Below are positions 1-11,374 of a stretch of 11,374 nucleotides of DNA, piece after piece. The position numbers and the translations under genes are program-made. The stretch is from Candidatus Iainarchaeum sp. (GTDB lineage: Archaea > Iainarchaeota > Iainarchaeia > Iainarchaeales > CSSED10-239). The stretch covers positions 1-11,374 of the forward strand of contig JAQUVR010000013.1 of the NCBI GenBank assembly GCA_028693335.1, in the 5' to 3' direction. Below the pieces are notes generated by a model. It saw only the letters and a list, made by a program, of their open reading frames with translations, did no database searches and was not told where the DNA came from. Numbering within the stretch: the first letter of the stretch is position 1; every line of letters begins with the position of its first letter.

Positions 1-218
1 TATTAGTTGATGAAGTTTATCTAAGATCTGTTCTTAAAAAAATAAAAGATAAAAAACTAAAAGACAATTTGTTAAAAATATTAGAATCTAATTTAAGACA
101 AAAAAGAATAGTTAAGACAAAAGATCTGGGAATAAAGGATGTTTATAATATAACAGTTAAAGGCAATCACAATTATTTTGTTTTTACTACAGGTTATGTT
201 CCAATATTAGTAAATAAT
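1..218 (+). other. C-terminal portion of an intein within ppsA (blocks F and G). The splice junction lies between Asn (216-218) and the +1 Cys (219-221).
   Basis: The sequence ...DVYNITVKGNHNYFVFTTGYVPILVNN|CHAAI matches intein block F (vYdltVe.nHnFv) and block G (hydrophobic-x-x-N followed by a C/S/T nucleophile). The text after the junction resumes the universal PpsA motif (GGxT)CHAAI. Confidence 0.78.
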
Positions 219-1530: not shown

Positions 1531-1623
1531 ATGCTTAATAAAAGATCTCTCTCCCCATTGATCGCAACGATCTTACTAATTGTAGTATCAGTAATATTAA
1601 TAACTGTGATTTTAACTTGGGGC
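1531..1623 (+). other. Class III signal peptide and hydrophobic pilin helix coding segment (gene A1)
   Basis: MLNKRS|LSPLIATILLIVVSVILITVILTWG. The predicted prepilin-peptidase site follows the basic residues and Ser. Confidence 0.7.
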
Positions 1624-2829
1624 TCTACTTTTGCAAAAGAACATTTGTCTTCTCAAACAATAACCATAAACAAATCTGATTTGACTGGGTTAATTATAAG
1701 TAGACCTATCTCAAATAATCAATTATTTTTAAATAATCAATCTTCTATAGATTTAAATATTATTGGTTATAATATAATTTTACCGACGAATCATTATCTA
1801 TTTGATGATTTTTCAAATAAAACATTTTATTTAGATTCTCCGTTTTATTTATCTAAAAATTCACAAGAATTATTAGTTGTTGAATGTTTTCCATCAAATA
1901 ATTTTTTCATAAATCTTTTAACTTCTGAAAATAATTTTATTAAGGTTTCAGTTACTACTAACATTACTTTAAATCCAGAAACTAGTAATTTTATTCAAAG
2001 AGTGAAAAATGATGGTGGTGTTATAGTTGATGTTTGTGCAATAGATAATAGAATAACATTTTTAAAAGCAAATGGACTCTGGGAAAAATTAAGAGGAGAA
2101 CATTCTTTAAATTTTGGAATAAAATTTAATTCTTCTAATCCAAATTTAGTTGAAAAAATTTATTCTATAAAAGGAGAAGATGATTTTTTACAAACAAATC
2201 CAGATCTTCAGGGGGAATTTTTAGAAAATGGTTTAAATCAAAAGGCAATTTTAAAAATTACAAATAAAAATCAAGTATATGATATTATTAATGATGGTAA
2301 AAAATGGATTAGACATGTAAATAAAATGGAACACTCTGTGGTAGTTAAATATCATTCTTTCCCATTAGATCAGATTTTTTATACTATTAATTTATATTTA
2401 TATAGCAATAGTCAATCAGATTATCCTAGTGTGTATTTTGGATTAAATGTTGCTGGTTGGAGTTCAGCAGATAATGCCTCAAAACCAGGATTTTATGTTA
2501 AAAAAAATACTGTTGAAAGAGATTGGCAACAATCAAGTACATTAATCCCAAATGATTTTATGGTTTTTGATTCTTTTTGGGATGTTGAAAATAGATCAAT
2601 TAAACAACACTTAAATAATAACTTGGTGCACATTAGAACGGTTTTAACTTCTGGGTATACTGCAGATTATGATGTTACTGCTGCACAAGTTATTAAAAAC
2701 TATTCTGCTCCCACCTTTGAAATTCCAACAAAAGAATATGCCCATTTTTCTTTCTGGAATTTAGTTATGTCTGATGAACAAAGATTAAAAAATTATAATT
2801 GGCATAAAAATTATTATGAATTAGAATAA
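1531..2829 (+). CDS. Type IV pilin-like (class III signal peptide) surface protein, paralog type A copy 1. The C-terminal domain is unassigned, possibly a divergent LamG/ConA-like jelly roll.
   Basis: The N-terminus MLNKRS|LSPLIATILLIVVSVILITVILTWG matches the archaeal Pilin_N (DUF1628-type) pattern. A shared post-leader module (DLTGLIISRPIS...VVECFP...DVCAID) follows. The C-terminus HFSFWNLVMSDEQRLKNYNW resembles the terminal strand and helix of LamG domains (compare FKIYDRALTSEEILKLYN in the gene at 6940). Confidence 0.85.
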   Translation: MLNKRSLSPLIATILLIVVSVILITVILTWGSTFAKEHLSSQTITINKSDLTGLIISRPISNNQLFLNNQSSIDLNIIGYNIILPTNHYLFDDFSNKTFYLDSPFYLSKNSQELLVVECFPSNNFFINLLTSENNFIKVSVTTNITLNPETSNFIQRVKNDGGVIVDVCAIDNRITFLKANGLWEKLRGEHSLNFGIKFNSSNPNLVEKIYSIKGEDDFLQTNPDLQGEFLENGLNQKAILKITNKNQVYDIINDGKKWIRHVNKMEHSVVVKYHSFPLDQIFYTINLYLYSNSQSDYPSVYFGLNVAGWSSADNASKPGFYVKKNTVERDWQQSSTLIPNDFMVFDSFWDVENRSIKQHLNNNLVHIRTVLTSGYTADYDVTAAQVIKNYSAPTFEIPTKEYAHFSFWNLVMSDEQRLKNYNWHKNYYELE

Positions 2830-2830
2830 G

Positions 2831-2932
2831 ATGAGTGATTTGAAAAATAAAAAAAGTTTGTCCCCATTGATCGCAACAATATTATTAATAGTTGTATCAG
2901 TAATATTAATTAGTGTGATCTTAACCTGGGGA
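2831..2932 (+). other. Class III signal peptide and hydrophobic pilin helix coding segment (gene B1)
   Basis: MSDLKNKKS|LSPLIATILLIVVSVILISVILTWG. Confidence 0.7.
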
Positions 2933-4234
2933 TCAAGCTTTGCTAAAAACAACACAGAAAAAGCAAATACTTTTTTAGAGTCCTCAAAACAGATTCCAAA
3001 AAGTGGTGTTTTTTGGCTAGATTCTTTAATAGGAGATAAAGTTATTCTAAAAAATAATCTGAGTTCTTCAGTAGAGATTAAAGGATATAAAATCTTAAAA
3101 ACTGATTTTAATTCAGATTATTTTTGGTTAAATAGTTATAGATCTTTAGAGAATAATCTGATTTTTAATGCATCTTCACTAAACTCTATTCCTTTAGTGT
3201 GTGTTCCAGAAAGTAAGTTTTTTTTAGAGCTAATAGATGTTAATGATCAGCCCTACTCTATAGAGATTAACCCAAGAGGTAACAGCTCTTACACAAAATG
3301 TAATGCTTTTAATGTTCCGTTGTGGGAGTTTGAAGAGGTGAGTGGATCTTATACTATAAATACATTCACAAAAGAACAAGGTGATTTGATTACTAATGGC
3401 GGATTTGATATAGACACAGCATGGATTAAAGAAACAAATTGGTCTGTTTTCGATGGAACTGCAAATGCAAATAATGCTAACGGTTCAGCAATAAGACAAA
3501 ATAATATATTAATGGTAAATAAAAAATATTTGGTTATTTTTGAAGTTAAAAATTATGTTTCTGGATTTGTTAGGTTTTATACCGGAACTGGTGCAGATGG
3601 AACTAGTAGAAATTCAAATGGTTTATATTATCAAACAGTTTATGCAGCTACCACAAATTTACAATTTATTGGTGCTAGTTTTACGGGGTCAATAGACAAT
3701 GTTTCAGTAACTGAAGTAGATCCTTTAGAAACAATAACAGACGGAACAAAGTATCTTGAAATTATATCTTATACTGGCACAAGTTTAATTTCTTCTGAAA
3801 ATAAACAAGTTTATGGGGTTTGGGAATTTGATTTTTATTATACAGATATATTTGGATATATACTATTTATAAATGATGATTTAAATAATGGTTTATCTAA
3901 TACCACAGGATATACCCTTGTATATAATTGTACTGGCAATAATGATTTTACTTTACGCAGATATGTTTCAGGAAGTGTTTCTGCTGGTTTATTTACTTCT
4001 TCACAAAATGTTCTTTCTAAAAATACGTGGTATAGATTTAAAATTATTAGATATTTAAATAATACTTTTGATATTTATTTAATGGGTGGGCAATATGGAG
4101 ATAATTGGATAAAAATAAATTCTACAGCAATTACGGATTCAAGTCCAATAATAACTTCAAATGCTTTTTCTATTTATAATCCAAGAGTTGGAGATAGAAT
4201 TGCAAATCTAAAAATAACTCCGGAGATCGAGTAA
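2831..4234 (+). CDS. Type IV pilin-like surface protein, paralog type B copy 1, with a CBM-like jelly-roll domain and a ConA/LamG-like domain
   Basis: The N-terminus is MSDLKNKKS|LSPLIATILLIVVSVILISVILTWG, followed by the shared module (...IPLVCVPESKFF...YTKCNAF). The middle region runs from LITNGGFDIDTAWIKETNW to FTGSIDNVSVTEV, a pattern typical of CBM4/9-like or galactose-binding-like domains. The distal region (WEFDFYY...GYTLVY...NTWYRFKIIRY..FDIYLMG) looks like a concanavalin A-like lectin or glucanase fold. The start lies 1 nt after the upstream stop. Confidence 0.85.
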   Translation: MSDLKNKKSLSPLIATILLIVVSVILISVILTWGSSFAKNNTEKANTFLESSKQIPKSGVFWLDSLIGDKVILKNNLSSSVEIKGYKILKTDFNSDYFWLNSYRSLENNLIFNASSLNSIPLVCVPESKFFLELIDVNDQPYSIEINPRGNSSYTKCNAFNVPLWEFEEVSGSYTINTFTKEQGDLITNGGFDIDTAWIKETNWSVFDGTANANNANGSAIRQNNILMVNKKYLVIFEVKNYVSGFVRFYTGTGADGTSRNSNGLYYQTVYAATTNLQFIGASFTGSIDNVSVTEVDPLETITDGTKYLEIISYTGTSLISSENKQVYGVWEFDFYYTDIFGYILFINDDLNNGLSNTTGYTLVYNCTGNNDFTLRRYVSGSVSAGLFTSSQNVLSKNTWYRFKIIRYLNNTFDIYLMGGQYGDNWIKINSTAITDSSPIITSNAFSIYNPRVGDRIANLKITPEIE

Positions 4235-4236
4235 TA

Positions 4237-4326
4237 ATGTTTAAAAGATCTCTCTCCTCATTGATCGCAACTATTTTATTAATAGTTGTAAGTGTGATAT
4301 TGATCACTGTTGTTTTAACATGGGGC
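4237..4326 (+). other. Class III signal peptide and hydrophobic pilin helix coding segment (gene A2)
   Basis: MFKRS|LSSLIATILLIVVSVILITVVLTWG. The otherwise invariant Pro of LSP is Ser here. Confidence 0.65.
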
Positions 4327-5532
4327 TCAGACTTTGCAAGAGAACATTTGTCTTCTCAAACAACAACCATAAACAAATCTGATTTGACTGGGTTAATTAT
4401 AAGTAGACCTATCTCAAATAATCAATTATTTTTAAATAATCAATCTTCTATAGATTTAAATATTATTGGTTATAATATAATTTTACCGACGAATCATTAT
4501 CTATTTGATGATTTTTCAAATAAAACATTTTATTTAGATTCTCCGTTTTATTTATCTAAAAATTCACAAGAATTATTAGTTGTTGAATGTTTTCCATCAA
4601 ATAATTTTTTCATAAATCTTTTAACTTCTGAAAATAATTTTATTAAGGTTTCAGTTACTACTAACATTACTTTAAATCCAGAAACTAGTAATTTTATTCA
4701 AAGAGTGAAAAATGATGGTGGTGTTATAGTTGATGTTTGTGCAATAGATAATAGAATAACATTTTTAAAAGCAAATGGACTCTGGGAAAAATTAAGAGGA
4801 GAACATTCTTTAAATTTTGGAATAAAATTTAATTCTTCTAATCCAAATTTAGTTGAAAAAATTTATTCTATAAAAGGAGAAGATGATTTTTTACAAACAA
4901 ATCCAGATCTTCAGGGGGAATTTTTAGAAAATGGTTTAAATCAAAAGGCAATTTTAAAAATTACAAATAAAAATCAAGTATATGATATTATTAATGATGG
5001 TAAAAAATGGATTAGACATGTAAATAAAATGGAACACTCTGTGGTAGTTAAATATCATTCTTTCCCATTAGATCAGATTTTTTATACTATTAATTTATAT
5101 TTATATAGCAATAGTCAATCAGATTATCCTAGTGTGTATTTTGGATTAAATGTTGCTGGTTGGAGTTCAGCAGATAATGCCTCAAAACCAGGATTTTATG
5201 TTAAAAAAAATACTGTTGAAAGAGATTGGCAACAATCAAGTACATTAATCCCAAATGATTTTATGGTTTTTGATTCTTTTTGGGATGTTGAAAATAGATC
5301 AATTAAACAACACTTAAATAATAACTTGGTGCACATTAGAACGGTTTTAACTTCTGGGTATACTGCAGATTATGATGTTACTGCTGCACAAGTTATTAAA
5401 AACTATTCTGCTCCCACCTTTGAAATTCCAACAAAAGAATATGCCCATTTTTCTTTCTGGAATTTAGTTATGTCTGATGAACAAAGATTAAAAAATTATA
5501 ATTGGCATAAAAATTATTATGAATTAGAATAA
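4237..5532 (+). CDS. Type IV pilin-like surface protein, paralog type A copy 2, with a chimeric 5' end
   Basis: From the EHLSSQT motif onward the protein matches the gene at 1531 with one substitution (I to T). The first 105 nt instead match the 5' end of the gene at 6940, with 3 mismatches. Confidence 0.85.
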   Translation: MFKRSLSSLIATILLIVVSVILITVVLTWGSDFAREHLSSQTTTINKSDLTGLIISRPISNNQLFLNNQSSIDLNIIGYNIILPTNHYLFDDFSNKTFYLDSPFYLSKNSQELLVVECFPSNNFFINLLTSENNFIKVSVTTNITLNPETSNFIQRVKNDGGVIVDVCAIDNRITFLKANGLWEKLRGEHSLNFGIKFNSSNPNLVEKIYSIKGEDDFLQTNPDLQGEFLENGLNQKAILKITNKNQVYDIINDGKKWIRHVNKMEHSVVVKYHSFPLDQIFYTINLYLYSNSQSDYPSVYFGLNVAGWSSADNASKPGFYVKKNTVERDWQQSSTLIPNDFMVFDSFWDVENRSIKQHLNNNLVHIRTVLTSGYTADYDVTAAQVIKNYSAPTFEIPTKEYAHFSFWNLVMSDEQRLKNYNWHKNYYELE

Positions 5533-5533
5533 G

Positions 5534-5635
5534 ATGAGTGATTTGAAAAATAAAAAAAGTTTGTCCCCATTGATCGCAACAATATTATTAATAGTTGTAT
5601 CAGTAATATTAATTAGTGTGATCTTAACCTGGGGA
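5534..5635 (+). other. Class III signal peptide and hydrophobic pilin helix coding segment (gene B2)
   Basis: Identical to the B1 leader. Confidence 0.7.
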
Positions 5636-6937
5636 TCAAGCTTTGCTAAAAACAACACAGAAAAAGCAAATACTTTTTTAGAGTCCTCAAAACAGATTCC
5701 AAAAAGTGGTGTTTTTTGGCTAGATTCTTTAATAGGAGATAAAGTTATTCTAAAAAATAATCTGAGTTCTTCAGTAGAGATTAAAGGATATAAAATCTTA
5801 AAAACTGATTTTAATTCAGATTATTTTTGGTTAAATAGTTATAGATCTTTAGAGAATAATCTGATTTTTAATGCATCTTCACTAAACTCTATTCCTTTAG
5901 TGTGTGTTCCAGAAAGTAAGTTTTTTTTAGAGCTAATAGATGTTAATGATCAGCCCTACTCTATAGAGATTAACCCAAGAGGTAACAGCTCTTACACAAA
6001 ATGTAATGCTTTTAATGTTCCGTTGTGGGAGTTTGAAGAGGTGAGTGGATCTTATACTATAAATACATTCACAAAAGAACAAGGTGATTTGATTACTAAT
6101 GGCGGATTTGATATAGACACAGCATGGATTAAAGAAACAAATTGGTCTGTTTTCGATGGAACTGCAAATGCAAATAATGCTAACGGTTCAGCAATAAGAC
6201 AAAATAATATATTAATGGTAAATAAAAAATATTTGGTTATTTTTGAAGTTAAAAATTATGTTTCTGGATTTGTTAGGTTTTATACCGGAACTGGTGCAGA
6301 TGGAACTAGTAGAAATTCAAATGGTTTATATTATCAAACAGTTTATGCAGCTACCACAAATTTACAATTTATTGGTGCTAGTTTTACGGGGTCAATAGAC
6401 AATGTTTCAGTAACTGAAGTAGATCCTTTAGAAACAATAACAGACGGAACAAAGTATCTTGAAATTATATCTTATACTGGCACAAGTTTAATTTCTTCTG
6501 AAAATAAACAAGTTTATGGGGTTTGGGAATTTGATTTTTATTATACAGATATATTTGGATATATACTATTTATAAATGATGATTTAAATAATGGTTTATC
6601 TAATACCACAGGATATACCCTTGTATATAATTGTACTGGCAATAATGATTTTACTTTACGCAGATATGTTTCAGGAAGTGTTTCTGCTGGTTTATTTACT
6701 TCTTCACAAAATGTTCTTTCTAAAAATACGTGGTATAGATTTAAAATTATTAGATATTTAAATAATACTTTTGATATTTATTTAATGGGTGGGCAATATG
6801 GAGATAATTGGATAAAAATAAATTCTACAGCAATTACGGATTCAAGTCCAATAATAACTTCAAATGCTTTTTCTATTTATAATCCAAGAGCTGGAGATAG
6901 AATTGCAAATCTAAAAATAACTCCGGAGATCGAGTAA
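5534..6937 (+). CDS. Type IV pilin-like surface protein, paralog type B copy 2
   Basis: The 467-aa protein matches the gene at 2831 except V453A (gtt at 4187-4189 versus gct at 6890-6892). Confidence 0.85.
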   Translation: MSDLKNKKSLSPLIATILLIVVSVILISVILTWGSSFAKNNTEKANTFLESSKQIPKSGVFWLDSLIGDKVILKNNLSSSVEIKGYKILKTDFNSDYFWLNSYRSLENNLIFNASSLNSIPLVCVPESKFFLELIDVNDQPYSIEINPRGNSSYTKCNAFNVPLWEFEEVSGSYTINTFTKEQGDLITNGGFDIDTAWIKETNWSVFDGTANANNANGSAIRQNNILMVNKKYLVIFEVKNYVSGFVRFYTGTGADGTSRNSNGLYYQTVYAATTNLQFIGASFTGSIDNVSVTEVDPLETITDGTKYLEIISYTGTSLISSENKQVYGVWEFDFYYTDIFGYILFINDDLNNGLSNTTGYTLVYNCTGNNDFTLRRYVSGSVSAGLFTSSQNVLSKNTWYRFKIIRYLNNTFDIYLMGGQYGDNWIKINSTAITDSSPIITSNAFSIYNPRAGDRIANLKITPEIE

Positions 6938-6939
6938 TA

Positions 6940-7029
6940 ATGTTTAAAAAATCTCTCTCCCCATTGATCGCAACTATTTTATTAATAGTTGTAAGTGTGA
7001 TATTGATTACTGTTGTTTTAACATGGGGC
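6940..7029 (+). other. Class III signal peptide and hydrophobic pilin helix coding segment (gene C)
   Basis: MFKKS|LSPLIATILLIVVSVILITVVLTWG. Confidence 0.7.
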
Positions 7030-8013
7030 TCAGACTTTGCAAGAGATAAACTATCCACCGCAAAAACCATATCCACTCAAACTACAGATCTAACTGGTTT
7101 AGTTTCTTCAAGATCAATTTCTTCTCAAAATATTTTAATATCTAATAATTCTTCAAAAGATCTTAATGTTACGGGATATAAGATCATCTCTTCTATAGAT
7201 CATTATCTTTATGATTATTTTGAAAATAAAATATATAATTTAGATCAACCATTAATCATTAATTCAAATTCAGCACAAAGTTTACAAATAGATTGTTATC
7301 CAGAAAATACATTTTTTATAGATCTTTTAACAGATCAAAACATTTATGTAAGAACACAAGTTCTTGTAGGATCTATAAATGATATAGATCCTTTGAGTTG
7401 TGGATTAATTAGCTATTGGAAATTTGATGGAGATACAAAAGATAATTTTAAAAAACACGATTTAACAGTAGTAGGAAACACTCAATATGTTGATGGTGTT
7501 TTAGATCAAGCATTAAGTTTTACTAATTCTAGTTATGCTAGAAATAATTCTTTTTATTTATCTGCAGACCCTAACTTTACTATATCTACATGGGTGAAAA
7601 AAACAGACCTTATTAATCAAAGGGGGGTCTGGGGCATAGGTAGTGGAAGTTATGAAACTATGTCTGGATATAATAGTGTTGGAGAATATATTGGAGTTGA
7701 TTTCTGGGCCAGAGCCACTTTTTATATTCAAGAAGAATATCCTATAGATGAATGGATCTATGTAACCTGGGTTAAAAAAGCCGCAACTTTTTCAATAGAT
7801 TCTTTTGAAATATATTTAAATGGACATAAAAAAAACCTGTTTAGAAGTAGGGGTTCTATACATTCTGTAACAACAACAAACGGAATAACAATTGGGGGAA
7901 TATATCCTAGTAGCACATTTTCAGCAACAGCGGTTTTAGATGATTTTAAAATTTATGATAGGGCTTTAACTTCTGAAGAAATTTTAAAATTATATAATTT
8001 CTATAATAGTTAA
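6940..8013 (+). CDS. Type IV pilin-like surface protein with a C-terminal LamG (Laminin_G_3 / ConA-like lectin) domain, paralog type C
   Basis: The N-terminus is MFKKS|LSPLIATILLIVVSVILITVVLTWG, followed by the shared module with Cys119 and Cys154. From about nt 7402 the LamG hallmarks appear: LISYWKFDGDTKD...HDLTVVGNTQYVDGVLDQALSF, FTISTWVK, EWIYVTWV, FEIYLNG and LDDFKIYDRALTSEEILKLYN. Confidence 0.88.
   Translation: MFKKSLSPLIATILLIVVSVILITVVLTWGSDFARDKLSTAKTISTQTTDLTGLVSSRSISSQNILISNNSSKDLNVTGYKIISSIDHYLYDYFENKIYNLDQPLIINSNSAQSLQIDCYPENTFFIDLLTDQNIYVRTQVLVGSINDIDPLSCGLISYWKFDGDTKDNFKKHDLTVVGNTQYVDGVLDQALSFTNSSYARNNSFYLSADPNFTISTWVKKTDLINQRGVWGIGSGSYETMSGYNSVGEYIGVDFWARATFYIQEEYPIDEWIYVTWVKKAATFSIDSFEIYLNGHKKNLFRSRGSIHSVTTTNGITIGGIYPSSTFSATAVLDDFKIYDRALTSEEILKLYNFYNS
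7115..7263 (+). repeat. Near-identical 149-nt tract shared by paralogs C and D (copy in C)
   Basis: Aligns with 8200-8348 at an offset of 1085 nt with a single mismatch (7173 g versus 8258 t). The flanking coding sequence is visibly more diverged. Confidence 0.8.
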
Positions 8014-8027
8014 TAAACTAGATAAAC

Positions 8028-8120
8028 ATGTATAAAAAAAAATCTCTCTCCCCATTGATCGCAACTATTTTGTTAATAGTTGTAAGTGTGATATTAATCA
8101 CTGTTGTTTTAACCTGGGGA
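8028..8120 (+). other. Class III signal peptide and hydrophobic pilin helix coding segment (gene D)
   Basis: MYKKKS|LSPLIATILLIVVSVILITVVLTWG. Confidence 0.7.
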
Positions 8121-9122
8121 TCTAGTTTTACAAAAGAAAAACTATCTACAACCCAAGTAATTCAAAATAAAGATTTTACTGGATTAATTACAAGTAGACC
8201 AATTTCTTCTCAAAATATTTTAATATCTAATAATTCTTCAAAAGATCTTAATGTTACTGGATATAAGATCATCTCTTCTATAGATCATTATCTTTATGAT
8301 TATTTTGAAAATAAAATATATAATTTAGATCAACCATTAATCATTAATCCAAATTCTGCACAAACTTTGCAAATAGATTGTTATCCAGAAAGCTCTTTTT
8401 TTATAGATCTAATAACAGATCAAAATATATATGTAAGAACACAAATATCTGCGAGATCTATAAATGATGTAGATTCATTAAAATGTGGGTTAGTTCTAGA
8501 TTTTGATTCTATTAATGGTGTTTTAAATGAAAACACCGGAAAATCTTTTACGCCATATAATATAGACATTTTAGATCTGGGTAATGGTTATACTTCTGCA
8601 AGTTTTAATGGTACAAATAGTTATATTAGTTTTGGAAATCCAGAAAGTTTAATATTTGGAGAAAAACCATTTAGTGTTGTTATTTTATTTAAAACAAACT
8701 CTGTTTCTACTTCTCAAGCAATAGTTTCAAAAGGATATTTGTTTGGAGGCACTCCGTTAGATAATAAATCCTGGTCAATTGGTTTATTAGGTTCTAGTTC
8801 AAGAATCTATTTTGACACATATAAAACCGGACAAAGAAGGGCATTAGTTTCAATAAATTTAATAACTACTAATTGGCAGTATTTAGTAACTACCAGAGAT
8901 CAAGAATTAGGAAAAATTTATTTTAATAATTCTTTAGATATTTCTGGGCCTGTAGTAAATCCAATAGAAGATTCTTTTTATAATCTAATGATTGGAAGAA
9001 TAGCAATATCATCAATTTATTATTTTAATGGTTTAATACCTATTGTAAAAATATATGATCGTGTGTTAACAGAAGAGGAGATCTCAAATCTTTATAATAA
9101 AACAAAAGTAGTTTTTAATTAA
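8028..9122 (+). CDS. Type IV pilin-like surface protein with a C-terminal LamG-like domain, paralog type D
   Basis: The N-terminus is MYKKKS|LSPLIATILLIVVSVILITVVLTWG. The N-terminal half is very similar to gene C. The C-terminal half (from about nt 8487) is divergent but LamG-like: SASFNGTNSYISFG, PFSVVILFK, NWQYLVTT, GKIYFNN and IVKIYDRVLTEEEISNLYN. Confidence 0.85.
   Translation: MYKKKSLSPLIATILLIVVSVILITVVLTWGSSFTKEKLSTTQVIQNKDFTGLITSRPISSQNILISNNSSKDLNVTGYKIISSIDHYLYDYFENKIYNLDQPLIINPNSAQTLQIDCYPESSFFIDLITDQNIYVRTQISARSINDVDSLKCGLVLDFDSINGVLNENTGKSFTPYNIDILDLGNGYTSASFNGTNSYISFGNPESLIFGEKPFSVVILFKTNSVSTSQAIVSKGYLFGGTPLDNKSWSIGLLGSSSRIYFDTYKTGQRRALVSINLITTNWQYLVTTRDQELGKIYFNNSLDISGPVVNPIEDSFYNLMIGRIAISSIYYFNGLIPIVKIYDRVLTEEEISNLYNKTKVVFN
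8200..8348 (+). repeat. Near-identical 149-nt tract shared by paralogs C and D (copy in D)
   Basis: See the 7115-7263 entry. Confidence 0.8.
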
Positions 9123-10650: not shown

Positions 10651-11374
10651 ATGAAAGCAGAAAAAAAAATAAATACTAATAAGGAATCTAATAAAGATAA
10701 AAATATTTTTTCTAAAATATATGGCTCTTTAGAAAAGGGCTATAATAATTTTAGTGATTGGTTAACTGAAAAAGGAATACCAATAAATAAACTAAACCAA
10801 GCACTAGAAAAAAAAGGAATTCCTCCTTTTGCATTAATGGGGTCTATTCTGCTTTTAATTATCATTATTATTCTGTTTTTAATATTTGGTTTTTCTGCAA
10901 AAATGGAGTTAACAACCAATTTTTATGATCCAAATGGCGTCATATTAAATTCTGTTTTATTTTCTATTCGTGATAGTGATGGAATAGATGTATTTACTCC
11001 AAAAGAGCCAATCAATAATGGTCAAAAGCTAAAAGTACCATTATCCTTAGGAAAAACATATACTGTTGTTGCAACAAAAGAAGGATATGATATGCTAAGT
11101 AAGTCATACACTCCAACAGAAAAAAAAGACACAATTACTTTTAATTTTTATTCTCAATTACAAATGGGTCAATTAATAGTTAGACCAATAGATAGTTATA
11201 CAAATAAAGTTATTCCACAAGTAAAAGGAACAATAAGATATACAGACAAAGGAAGATCTGTAGAAAACATTGTTACATCCAATGGAAATTCTGATCTGTT
11301 ATTTGATGCTCCATTATCTACAAGACTACAAATCACTTTAGAAGCAGATGGTTATCAAACAACAACATTTGATT
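10651..11374 (+). CDS. Membrane-anchored protein with repeated PEGA/CarboxypepD_reg-like beta-sandwich modules, 3'-truncated by the window edge and absent from the supplied ORF track
   Basis: I translated this by hand from the ATG at 10651: MKAEKKINTNKESNKDKNIFSKIYGSLEKGYNNFSDWLTEKGIPINKLNQALEKKGIPPFALMGSILLLIIIIILFLIFGFSAK... The frame stays open to nt 11373 (241 codons). It has one TM helix, then two modules of about 75 aa ending in GKTYTVVATKEGYD and LQITLEADGYQTTTF, which is typical of PEGA/Big-like domains. Confidence 0.7.
   Translation, partial: MKAEKKINTNKESNKDKNIFSKIYGSLEKGYNNFSDWLTEKGIPINKLNQALEKKGIPPFALMGSILLLIIIIILFLIFGFSAKMELTTNFYDPNGVILNSVLFSIRDSDGIDVFTPKEPINNGQKLKVPLSLGKTYTVVATKEGYDMLSKSYTPTEKKDTITFNFYSQLQMGQLIVRPIDSYTNKVIPQVKGTIRYTDKGRSVENIVTSNGNSDLLFDAPLSTRLQITLEADGYQTTTFD

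Follow-up and report, generated by a model that had tools for sequence, protein, structure and literature searches.

Six consecutive genes at positions 1531-9122 of a contig from Candidatus Iainarchaeum sp. (JAQUVR010000013.1, assembly GCA_028693335.1) probably encode archaeal modular type IV pilins, which would act as adhesins from a minor or tip position in a pilus. The window analysed here is the entire 11,374-bp contig of a fragmentary metagenome-assembled genome (MAG), in which the six genes carry the locus tags PHU47_01110-01135 and their products the accessions MDD3244728-733. Each array protein is a complete small pilin to which one or more further domains, referred to below as the head, have been added. 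The open reading frame (ORF) listing places six ORFs on the plus strand, spanning 1531-9122, with coordinates exactly as given in an earlier note that was made from the sequence alone:

1531-2829, plus strand: gene A, 432 aa; leader MLNKRS, then the pilin helix, a beta-sandwich as far as about aa 145, a helical adaptor at aa 150-220 and plausibly a divergent LamG-like jelly roll
2831-4234, plus strand: gene B, 467 aa; leader MSDLKNKKS, pilin module, middle beta domain resembling a carbohydrate-binding module (CBM) at about aa 190-296, probable C-terminal jelly roll at about aa 319-463
4237-5532, plus strand: gene A2, 431 aa; chimera with the first ~35 codons from gene C and the remainder as in gene A except for one substitution
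5534-6937, plus strand: gene B2, 467 aa; copy of B with a single V-to-A difference (single-nucleotide polymorphism, SNP, at 4188/6891)
6940-8013, plus strand: gene C, 357 aa; pilin module and Laminin_G_3 head
8028-9122, plus strand: gene C2, 364 aa; pilin module and Laminin_G_3 head

The gaps between these genes are 1, 2, 1, 2 and 14 nt long, so co-transcription of all six is very likely. The earlier note had described six genes on the same strand, 1-14 nt apart, with a common N-terminus and divergent heads, and the ORF coordinates, the gaps and the leader features all agree with that description. Its account of a six-gene array stands as a count of ORFs and needs correcting as a count of gene types, of which there are only four: a 2703-bp tandem repeat makes A/A2 and B/B2 near-identical copies rather than separate paralogs. 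This duplication of A and B, with its chimeric A2, was absent from the earlier note; it appears to be very recent and is, in our reading of the sequence, the most informative aspect of the locus.

How DPANN archaea recognise and attach to partners or surfaces is largely unknown, and their pilins have often been reported as 'not annotated' (e.g. PMC9563170). The array genes are concrete candidates for such a role, combining one conserved carrier with many putative binding heads and with direct sequence evidence that heads have been duplicated and exchanged. Additionally, the heads could be expressed in soluble form and tested for binding on glycan arrays, with no need to culture the organism.

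The shared pilin module

All six proteins start with a leader of 5-9 residues that has a net charge of +2 or +3 and ends in K/R-S. Directly after it comes a near-invariant helix (K/R-S followed by LSPLIATILLIVVSVIL), whose sequence common to the six, LSPLIATILLIVVSVILI(T/S)V(I/V)LTWGS, contains 26-29 uncharged residues with a mean Kyte-Doolittle hydropathy of 2.6. The array proteins accordingly carry the features that define a class III signal peptide, namely a short positive leader, a [KR]-[GAS] site and at least 20 hydrophobic residues. Across ~55 homologues from other metagenomes, the first 30 residues show essentially no variation, and chance resemblance is therefore no concern. The module common to the six extends as far as about residue 145; in the divergent C-terminal parts, identity between types is 24-28%.

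Residues 1-150 of 25 diverse homologues were combined into a profile (profile A4). Among solved archaeal pilins, the profile matched the flagellar-like type IV pilus of Pyrobaculum calidifontis (8fk7_A, E 2.5e-8) over positions 3-116, thus covering the helix and the beta domain, as well as 8rey_M (E 1.2e-4), with weaker matches to 9myg, Iho670 (5kyh), 8fj5, Natrinema PilA2 (8gi2) and 3j1r. In the alignment, the mature chains 8rey, 5kyh and 3j1r start opposite the L of LSPLIAT (pattern L/V-SP-x-IAT), and cleavage is therefore predicted between Ser and Leu. The archaeal pilin-type N-terminus proposed in the earlier note is thus upheld by the profile matches and by mature N-termini that align exactly.

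Structural models point the same way. In the AlphaFold2 models of A and B, a long N-terminal helix, which the earlier note had expected, is followed by a confident seven-strand sandwich at about residues 55-146, with a predicted local distance difference test score (pLDDT) of ~85-90; in the A model specifically, the helix occupies residues 8-42 and the sandwich residues 55-142 (pLDDT ~90). A Foldseek search with the B model retrieved the P. calidifontis pilin 8fk7 (E 1.6e-4, TMt 0.46). Because both the A4 profile and the models match pilins, we read the shared module of about 100 aa as the globular domain of a pilin, and the shared N-terminal part as a whole is, at profile level, an archaeal type IV pilin.

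Head domains

The domains referred to in this section, apart from the middle and C-terminal domains of B, are as follows:

1978-2190, plus strand: 'RVxxDGG' ('RVKNDGG') adaptor domain of A, matching phrog_28256 at 1e-11; the equivalent in A2 is 4681-4893
7525-7983, plus strand: LamG domain of C (Pfam Laminin_G_3)
8607-9086, plus strand: LamG domain of C2 (Pfam Laminin_G_3)

For C and C2, a lectin-like jelly roll is established at the level of sequence. PF13385 (Laminin_G_3), with a cut-off of 27.6 bits, scores 47.1 bits in C (E 3.7e-12, aa 196-348) and 61.6 bits in C2 (E 1.3e-16, aa 194-353). A profile dominated by the LamG heads matches, again by sequence, the S-layer protein 4qvs, the botulinum neurotoxin (BoNT) BoNT/X, arabinanase domain 4, neurexins, NanA CBM40 and pentraxins, and it also matches PilC of Streptococcus sanguinis (7oa8) with an E-value of 3.5e-4. 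The LamG domain of C2 further matches the phage virion structural protein family phrog_8510 (8e-11).

The heads of A and B retrieved no significant LamG or CBM match in the Pfam search, and their assignment depends on fold. The C-terminal domain of B was modelled at pLDDT 76-88, and Foldseek matched it to galectins (TMt 0.6-0.72), calreticulin, neurexin LNS pairs and Vip3 CBM-like domains, while homologues of B yield weak CBM_4_9, Laminin_G and SO2946-like matches by sequence. The last domain of B is therefore a probable lectin-like jelly roll. The best match in the Protein Data Bank (PDB) for the whole A model is S. sanguinis PilC (7oa8, E 2.4e-7), followed by the BoNT Hc, a trans-sialidase lectin and CBM40 domains, and a search of a viral structure library with the same model returned concanavalin A (ConA)-like proteins; a lectin-like jelly roll is plausible for the A head as modelled. 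Taken over both models, which range from pLDDT 25 to 88, the ConA-like, galectin and BoNT-Hc fold matches have E-values of 1e-7 to 1e-4. The earlier note held that all heads look like carbohydrate- or ligand-binding jelly rolls. That description fits C and C2, where Laminin_G_3 is significant, and for A and B it may hold at the level of fold, in models of low to moderate confidence. Neither the A nor the B head was filed as LamG by sequence, since hhalign against the LamG heads was non-significant.

The A head is a near-orphan. A HMMER scan of 1.84 billion representatives found one full-length relative (P0002, 78% identity), and the other matches (~28, all weak; P0135-P0161) are confined to the first ~100 residues of the head, which form the helical 'RVxxDGG' domain. 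PF13385 lies downstream of this domain in 5 of 26 proteins, among them P0015, whose pilin module is the same. Searched against the PDB, a profile of proteins with the 'RVxxDGG' domain retrieved noise only. In B, the middle domain (aa 187-258, window positions 3389-3604) matches the phage family phrog_30593 (6.7e-8). We would like to note that phrog_28256 and phrog_30593, the families matching these sub-domains of the A and B heads, consist of phage proteins of unknown function.

Relatives, pilus machinery and proposed function

The ~55 retrieved proteins of the family share the same near-invariant helix and sandwich and differ in their heads. LamG is the commonest head; the others are the B-type double domain, an RCC1 propeller, FGE-sulfatase, Glug, PKD/cadherin-like domains and a repeat propeller. 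Among the GTDB species representatives searched, the family is restricted to Iainarchaeota/Diapherotrites-type DPANN archaea, including the complete genome of Ca. Forterrea multitransposorum, and multi-gene arrays of 2-6 family genes are common in these relatives, several further loci having two to four. The earlier note had proposed looking for the array in related genomes, and the same locus was found in syntenic form in GCA_030154545.1, where ppsA is followed by a B-type gene, three LamG genes, DAHP synthase, LemA and a giant protein. The head content of that locus differs from the window, and two further family genes lie upstream of ppsA. On the closest long contig (L005 1400-3594 / L006 10001-12195), two additional family genes, one of 275 aa that lacks a head domain and one of 364 aa, lie upstream of ppsA; with family genes on both sides, the array in that genome straddles ppsA.

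The genomes of relatives also encode small pilins, in sets of three to five and 147-169 aa long, with the helix MKKA followed by ISPLIATILLIVV. Profile A4 matches these small pilins with E-values of 1e-10 to 1e-24, in some cases over ~130 positions. In L034 (7655-11005), three of them lie directly downstream of two T2SSF platform genes, and a conserved cluster in which two T2SSF genes precede three to five Cys-containing small pilins was also observed in L031, L033, L037, L038, L023, L025 and L042. We consider the small pilins with the ISPLIATILLIVV helix to be candidate shaft pilins for the modular pilins. Other machinery is encoded near family members as well: a 770-aa T2SSE ATPase at a distance of 0.8 kb from one family member, a Peptidase_A24 gene 6 kb from a B-type homologue, and in L014 (7090-8790), at 4.4 kb from a family pair, a 566-aa T2SSE ATPase that has an N-terminal 4Fe-4S dicluster ferredoxin (Fer4) domain and precedes two T2SSF genes. 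The Fer4-T2SSE fusion in L014 is unusual. Separately, inteins (LAGLIDADG_3, Intein_splicing) occur in the 1260-1290-aa FlaI/PilB-like ATPases P0218, P0219, P0240, P0246 and P0273 from related archaea.

From these observations we propose the following course of events. An A24 (PibD/EppA-type) prepilin peptidase would cut off the basic leader of 5-9 residues behind Ser, and the invariant helix would admit the proteins to a pilus built by a FlaI/PilB-like ATPase and a two-gene PilC/TadBC-like platform, machinery of the kind seen in relatives. The shaft would probably consist of the ~150-aa pilins with the nearly identical helix, and the bulky heads would be displayed at the tip or sparsely along the fibre. 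A head of 200-320 aa is hard to fit on every subunit, which makes a minor or tip position the most plausible one. There, the heads may bind glycans or other surface ligands and so attach the archaeon to a host cell, other cells or polymers. Cleavage, incorporation into the filament, tip position, ligand class and biological role, including any adhesion and attachment to a host, are all put forward here as predictions.

A different arrangement would make the large proteins themselves the major subunits of a thick, lectin-coated filament, or would give each paralog a filament of its own, as has reportedly been proposed for the six Haloferax PilA pilins. The complete pilin module in each protein, the absence of a small pilin from the window and the frequency of arrays of 2-6 such genes in relatives would all fit. 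We nevertheless consider this arrangement very unlikely, given that the three to five small pilins beside the platform genes of relatives are more natural shaft subunits and that a head of 200-320 aa on each subunit would leave little room in a type IV filament. Modular pilins are, moreover, minor and tip-located in the single precedent that has been characterised (PMC9934059).

Several findings weigh against the array proteins being pilus-borne adhesins. A match to Pilin_N (PF07790) had been expected, and it failed to reach the curated cut-off of 25.2 bits on any protein of the window (13.8-18.9 bits, with no match in A2); TIGR02537 is likewise below its cut-off of 20 (12.5-18.2 bits). PF07790 matches 14 of 16 B-type homologues at E<0.1 (best 4.1e-5). 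Position -1 is Ser, where Gly or Ala is usual, and the homologous site in the small pilins of relatives is Ala or Gly. The head models are of low confidence for A (pLDDT 25-75) and moderate confidence for B (pLDDT 53-88), and the hhalign comparison of these heads with the LamG heads gave P 0.003-0.09. The 11,374-bp window contains no peptidase, assembly ATPase, platform gene or small pilin, in agreement with the earlier note, which had listed the assembly ATPase, platform protein and prepilin peptidase as missing. No accession of the MDD32447xx-MDD3245104 (PHU47) series appeared among the ATPase clusters checked, although the MAG is fragmentary and absence is not implied. Lastly, an exact 2.7-kb duplication in what is probably a short-read SPAdes assembly has a copy number that could be an artefact of loop traversal; this point is taken up in the next section.

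The sub-threshold Pfam and TIGRFAM pilin models, together with machinery not found in the window, could also mean that these proteins are not pilins at all but surface lectins of type II membrane topology, anchored by a Sec signal-anchor at the N-terminus and unlinked to type IV machinery. This we find hardly credible. Profile homology to solved pilins reaches past the helix into the beta-domain, the same helix is found on canonical small pilins encoded beside T2SSF genes, and its invariance across ~55 homologues exceeds what a membrane anchor needs.

The closest known parallel to a lectin-headed modular pilin is PilC of S. sanguinis, a bacterial modular type IV pilin like PilB of the same species (PDB 7oa7/7oa8). 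In PilC, a class III signal peptide is followed by a short pilin moiety, then an Ig-like module and finally a ConA-like lectin module resembling galectin-7; the protein binds sialylated and other glycans and has been modelled in a tip complex (PMC9934059). PilC and the array proteins have the same layout, a carrier pilin with a grafted effector module, and PilC is also the best PDB fold match of A, as described above. The earlier note's statement that fusions of Pilin_N and LamG are functionally uncharacterised was in this respect overstated, as PilC, a pilin with a ConA-like/LamG lectin, has been characterised both structurally and functionally (PMC9934059). In contrast to the array proteins with their archaeal Pilin_N-type helix, however, PilC has a bacterial, N-methylation-type N-terminus (IPR012902), and the two carrier modules are therefore not orthologous. 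S. sanguinis has one lectin pilin, whereas here four head types are arrayed, with a recent duplication and chimeras; and glycan binding and tip location, demonstrated for PilC, are predicted for the array proteins. Modular pilins are widespread in bacteria, and the survey that coined the term used IPR012902 and did not mention archaea (PMC8179133). The array proteins have the N-terminal pilin module and the C-terminal domain not specific to type IV filament biology that make up a modular pilin, but they lack the bacterial class III motif of the published set, with no N_methyl-type Pfam match (IPR012902) at E<=1 among the window proteins. They thus appear to be modular-pilin-like in their working, with a carrier that belongs, at profile level, to the archaeal pilin superfamily. 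If so, a principle experimentally established in a Gram-positive bacterium would extend to archaea. Our literature searches on LamG, pilins, archaea, DPANN and Iainarchaeota found no description of pilin-LamG fusions or of such arrays, and neither Makarova 2016 nor the 2026 type IV filament (TFF) preprint mentions LamG or lectin pilins.

With archaeal type IV pilins (8fk7, Iho670 5kyh, Haloferax PilA1-6) the array proteins share the leader, the SP-x-IAT-ILL helix and the beta-sandwich, all homologous at profile level. Those pilins are mostly single-module proteins of 130-300 aa, whereas the array proteins are 357-467 aa long, with added lectin-type domains and a Ser at position -1. As in the array, PilA1-6 of Haloferax volcanii are reported to be several paralogs that share one conserved hydrophobic domain. 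Six Haloferax PilA pilins are also mentioned in a recent preprint (10.64898/2026.04.22.720090).

A second relationship to be considered is with the bindosome of Sulfolobales, in which a class III signal peptide (SPIII) and pilin-like helix are fused to a ligand-binding part. By analogy with the sugar-binding proteins of Sulfolobus, the array proteins could form a bindosome-like or pseudopilus display, that is, a short cell-proximal structure whose lectin heads capture carbohydrates for uptake. Class III signal peptides are known on archaeal substrate-binding proteins (SBPs) that the Bas system assembles, candidate SPIII binding proteins number in the thousands according to a 2026 preprint (10.64898/2026.04.22.720090), and the combination of a conserved N-terminus with diverse, binding-type C-termini fits the array. 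Even so, we judge such a display unlikely. The heads are LamG, galectin or CBM-type jelly rolls rather than periplasmic SBP folds, with no SBP Pfam domain in any array protein, and whereas the Sulfolobales proteins are encoded in ATP-binding cassette (ABC) transporter loci, no ABC transporter adjoins the array in the window or in the syntenic relative. The full pilin beta-domain, homologous to that of filament-forming pilins, has also been kept.

TafC of Haloarcula (NF052521) is another archaeal fimbrial subunit with a LamG-type C-terminal domain. The array proteins match it at 1e-6 to 2e-8 over the LamG part, but TafC is Tat-exported (PMC11821415), whereas the array leaders have no twin-arginine motif. 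Membership of the TafC family was rejected, with scores of 28-34 bits against a cut-off of 410.

Recombination within the array and the flanking genes

The repeat and recombination features of the array are as follows:

1638-4340, no strand: tandem repeat copy 1; period 2703 bp, differing from copy 2 at 5 of 2703 nt
4341-7043, no strand: tandem repeat copy 2; ends within the conserved 5' stretch of A2 and C that codes for the pilin helix
4237-4343, plus strand: C-derived 5' segment of A2; 107 nt with 3 mismatches against the 5' end of C, putative crossover at about 4341-4343
7117-7300 in C and about 8205-8390 in C2, plus strand: gene-conversion-like tract; codons 60-120 are 93-100% identical in DNA, codons 40-60 63%

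The two copies of the tandem repeat are 99.8% identical. From position 4341 onward A2 equals A, with one SNP at 4364, and the ends of the repeat bear what we read as the mark of unequal crossover, with the 5' ends of A and C as the partners. Such a crossover at the conserved 5' regions of C and A would have converted A-B-C-C2 into A-B-(C5'::A3')-B-C-C2. A similar exchange is suggested by a contig from another sample (L011), in which an A-type gene has a C2-like stretch in codons 20-60. On that contig the A-type gene immediately follows a B-type gene, which lends independent support to the B-to-A junction of the window. The chimeric A2 and the A-B duplication indicate that recombination in the 5' pilin module has been shuffling heads, and the mosaic tracts, between C and C2 and in the A-type gene of L011, show at sequence level that heads and carrier modules have been repeatedly re-assorted.

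The count of six genes could nevertheless be partly an artefact, in which case the true order would be A-B-C-C2 and the assembler would have looped through a strain variant with a C-like 5' end on A. The repeat, 99.8% identical over 2.7 kb, is longer than short reads span, and the sister MAGs of the same batch carry SPAdes NODE names; the copy number of the array could therefore reflect loop traversal. Other assemblies also break within the array: the ENA/Logan contigs from the same population that carry the identical LemA gene (L001-L004) all end inside C2, 700-850 nt from the stop codon, and since these contig ends coincide with the near-identical tract of C and C2, the array acts as an assembly breaker. 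We still regard a looped assembly as rather improbable. The contig joins the 3' end of B, within 11-22 nt, to SNPs specific to A2 (4247, 4258), the two B copies differ by one SNP, and in the independent contig from another sample a B-type gene is directly followed by an A-type gene. The chimeric C5'::A3' junction, moreover, must exist in the reads either way.

In Neisseria pilE/pilS, variable 3' parts are exchanged by recombination that uses a conserved 5' pilin-coding region as its homology tract, and the array shows a functional analogy in that its conserved 5' module would double as a recombination substrate. In contrast to Neisseria, all copies here are whole genes that have a start and a signal peptide of their own, silent cassettes are absent, and neither a guanine-quadruplex nor dedicated machinery is known; what the array shows points to evolutionary shuffling and not to programmed variation. 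Taking the analogy further, the array might be a recombination-driven cassette system for DPANN pilus-tip lectins, with a carrier that is both assembly handle and homology tract and heads that are duplicated, swapped and re-assorted fast, setting or changing the host or ligand specificity of an episymbiont. We offer this only tentatively. If true, the array would be a functional analogue of the shuffling of phage receptor-binding proteins or of pilin antigenic variation, operating from complete expressed genes.

The array lies between a phosphoenolpyruvate (PEP) synthase gene (ppsA) upstream and, downstream, a minus-strand gene of the 3-deoxy-D-arabino-heptulosonate 7-phosphate (DAHP) synthase family, LemA and the start of a giant membrane-anchored protein. 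G+C content is 25-29% over the whole window, and the composition is unbroken at the array. Within the array, a GGAG motif lies 13 nt 5' of the ATG of the next gene, inside the last codons of B and B2 (...ccGGAGatcgagtaa; 4210-4236 and 6913-6939), and may be a Shine-Dalgarno-like signal for translational coupling. A 67-aa antisense ORF within the B2/C junction (6873-7076) is without support and was treated as spurious. Rfam and tRNA scans of the window found nothing, and a scan for sigma-70 promoters and terminators, uninformative for an archaeon, gave fewer matches than in shuffled sequence.

Both outermost genes run off the contig. At the left end, the ppsA ORF (3-218, plus strand, continuing to 1439) is truncated, and its first ~72 residues resemble the C-terminal end of an intein (...VYNITVKGNHNYFVFTTGYVPILVNN, followed by CHAAIIAREHGIPC), placed directly before the Cys of the CHAAI phosphohistidine motif. 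The penultimate residue of this intein-like segment is Asn, where His is usual, and the ppsA product of GCA_030154545.1 is 835 aa long, without a listed intein domain. At the right end, the gene for the giant surface protein (10651-11374, plus strand) is cut off; it adjoins the array in the relative too. The encoded protein has an N-terminal transmembrane helix, CarboxypepD_reg-like Ig repeats and a weak CLIPPER_2 match, and it exceeds 2036 aa in L001 (2225-8332) and 2856 aa in L005 (12631-21101).

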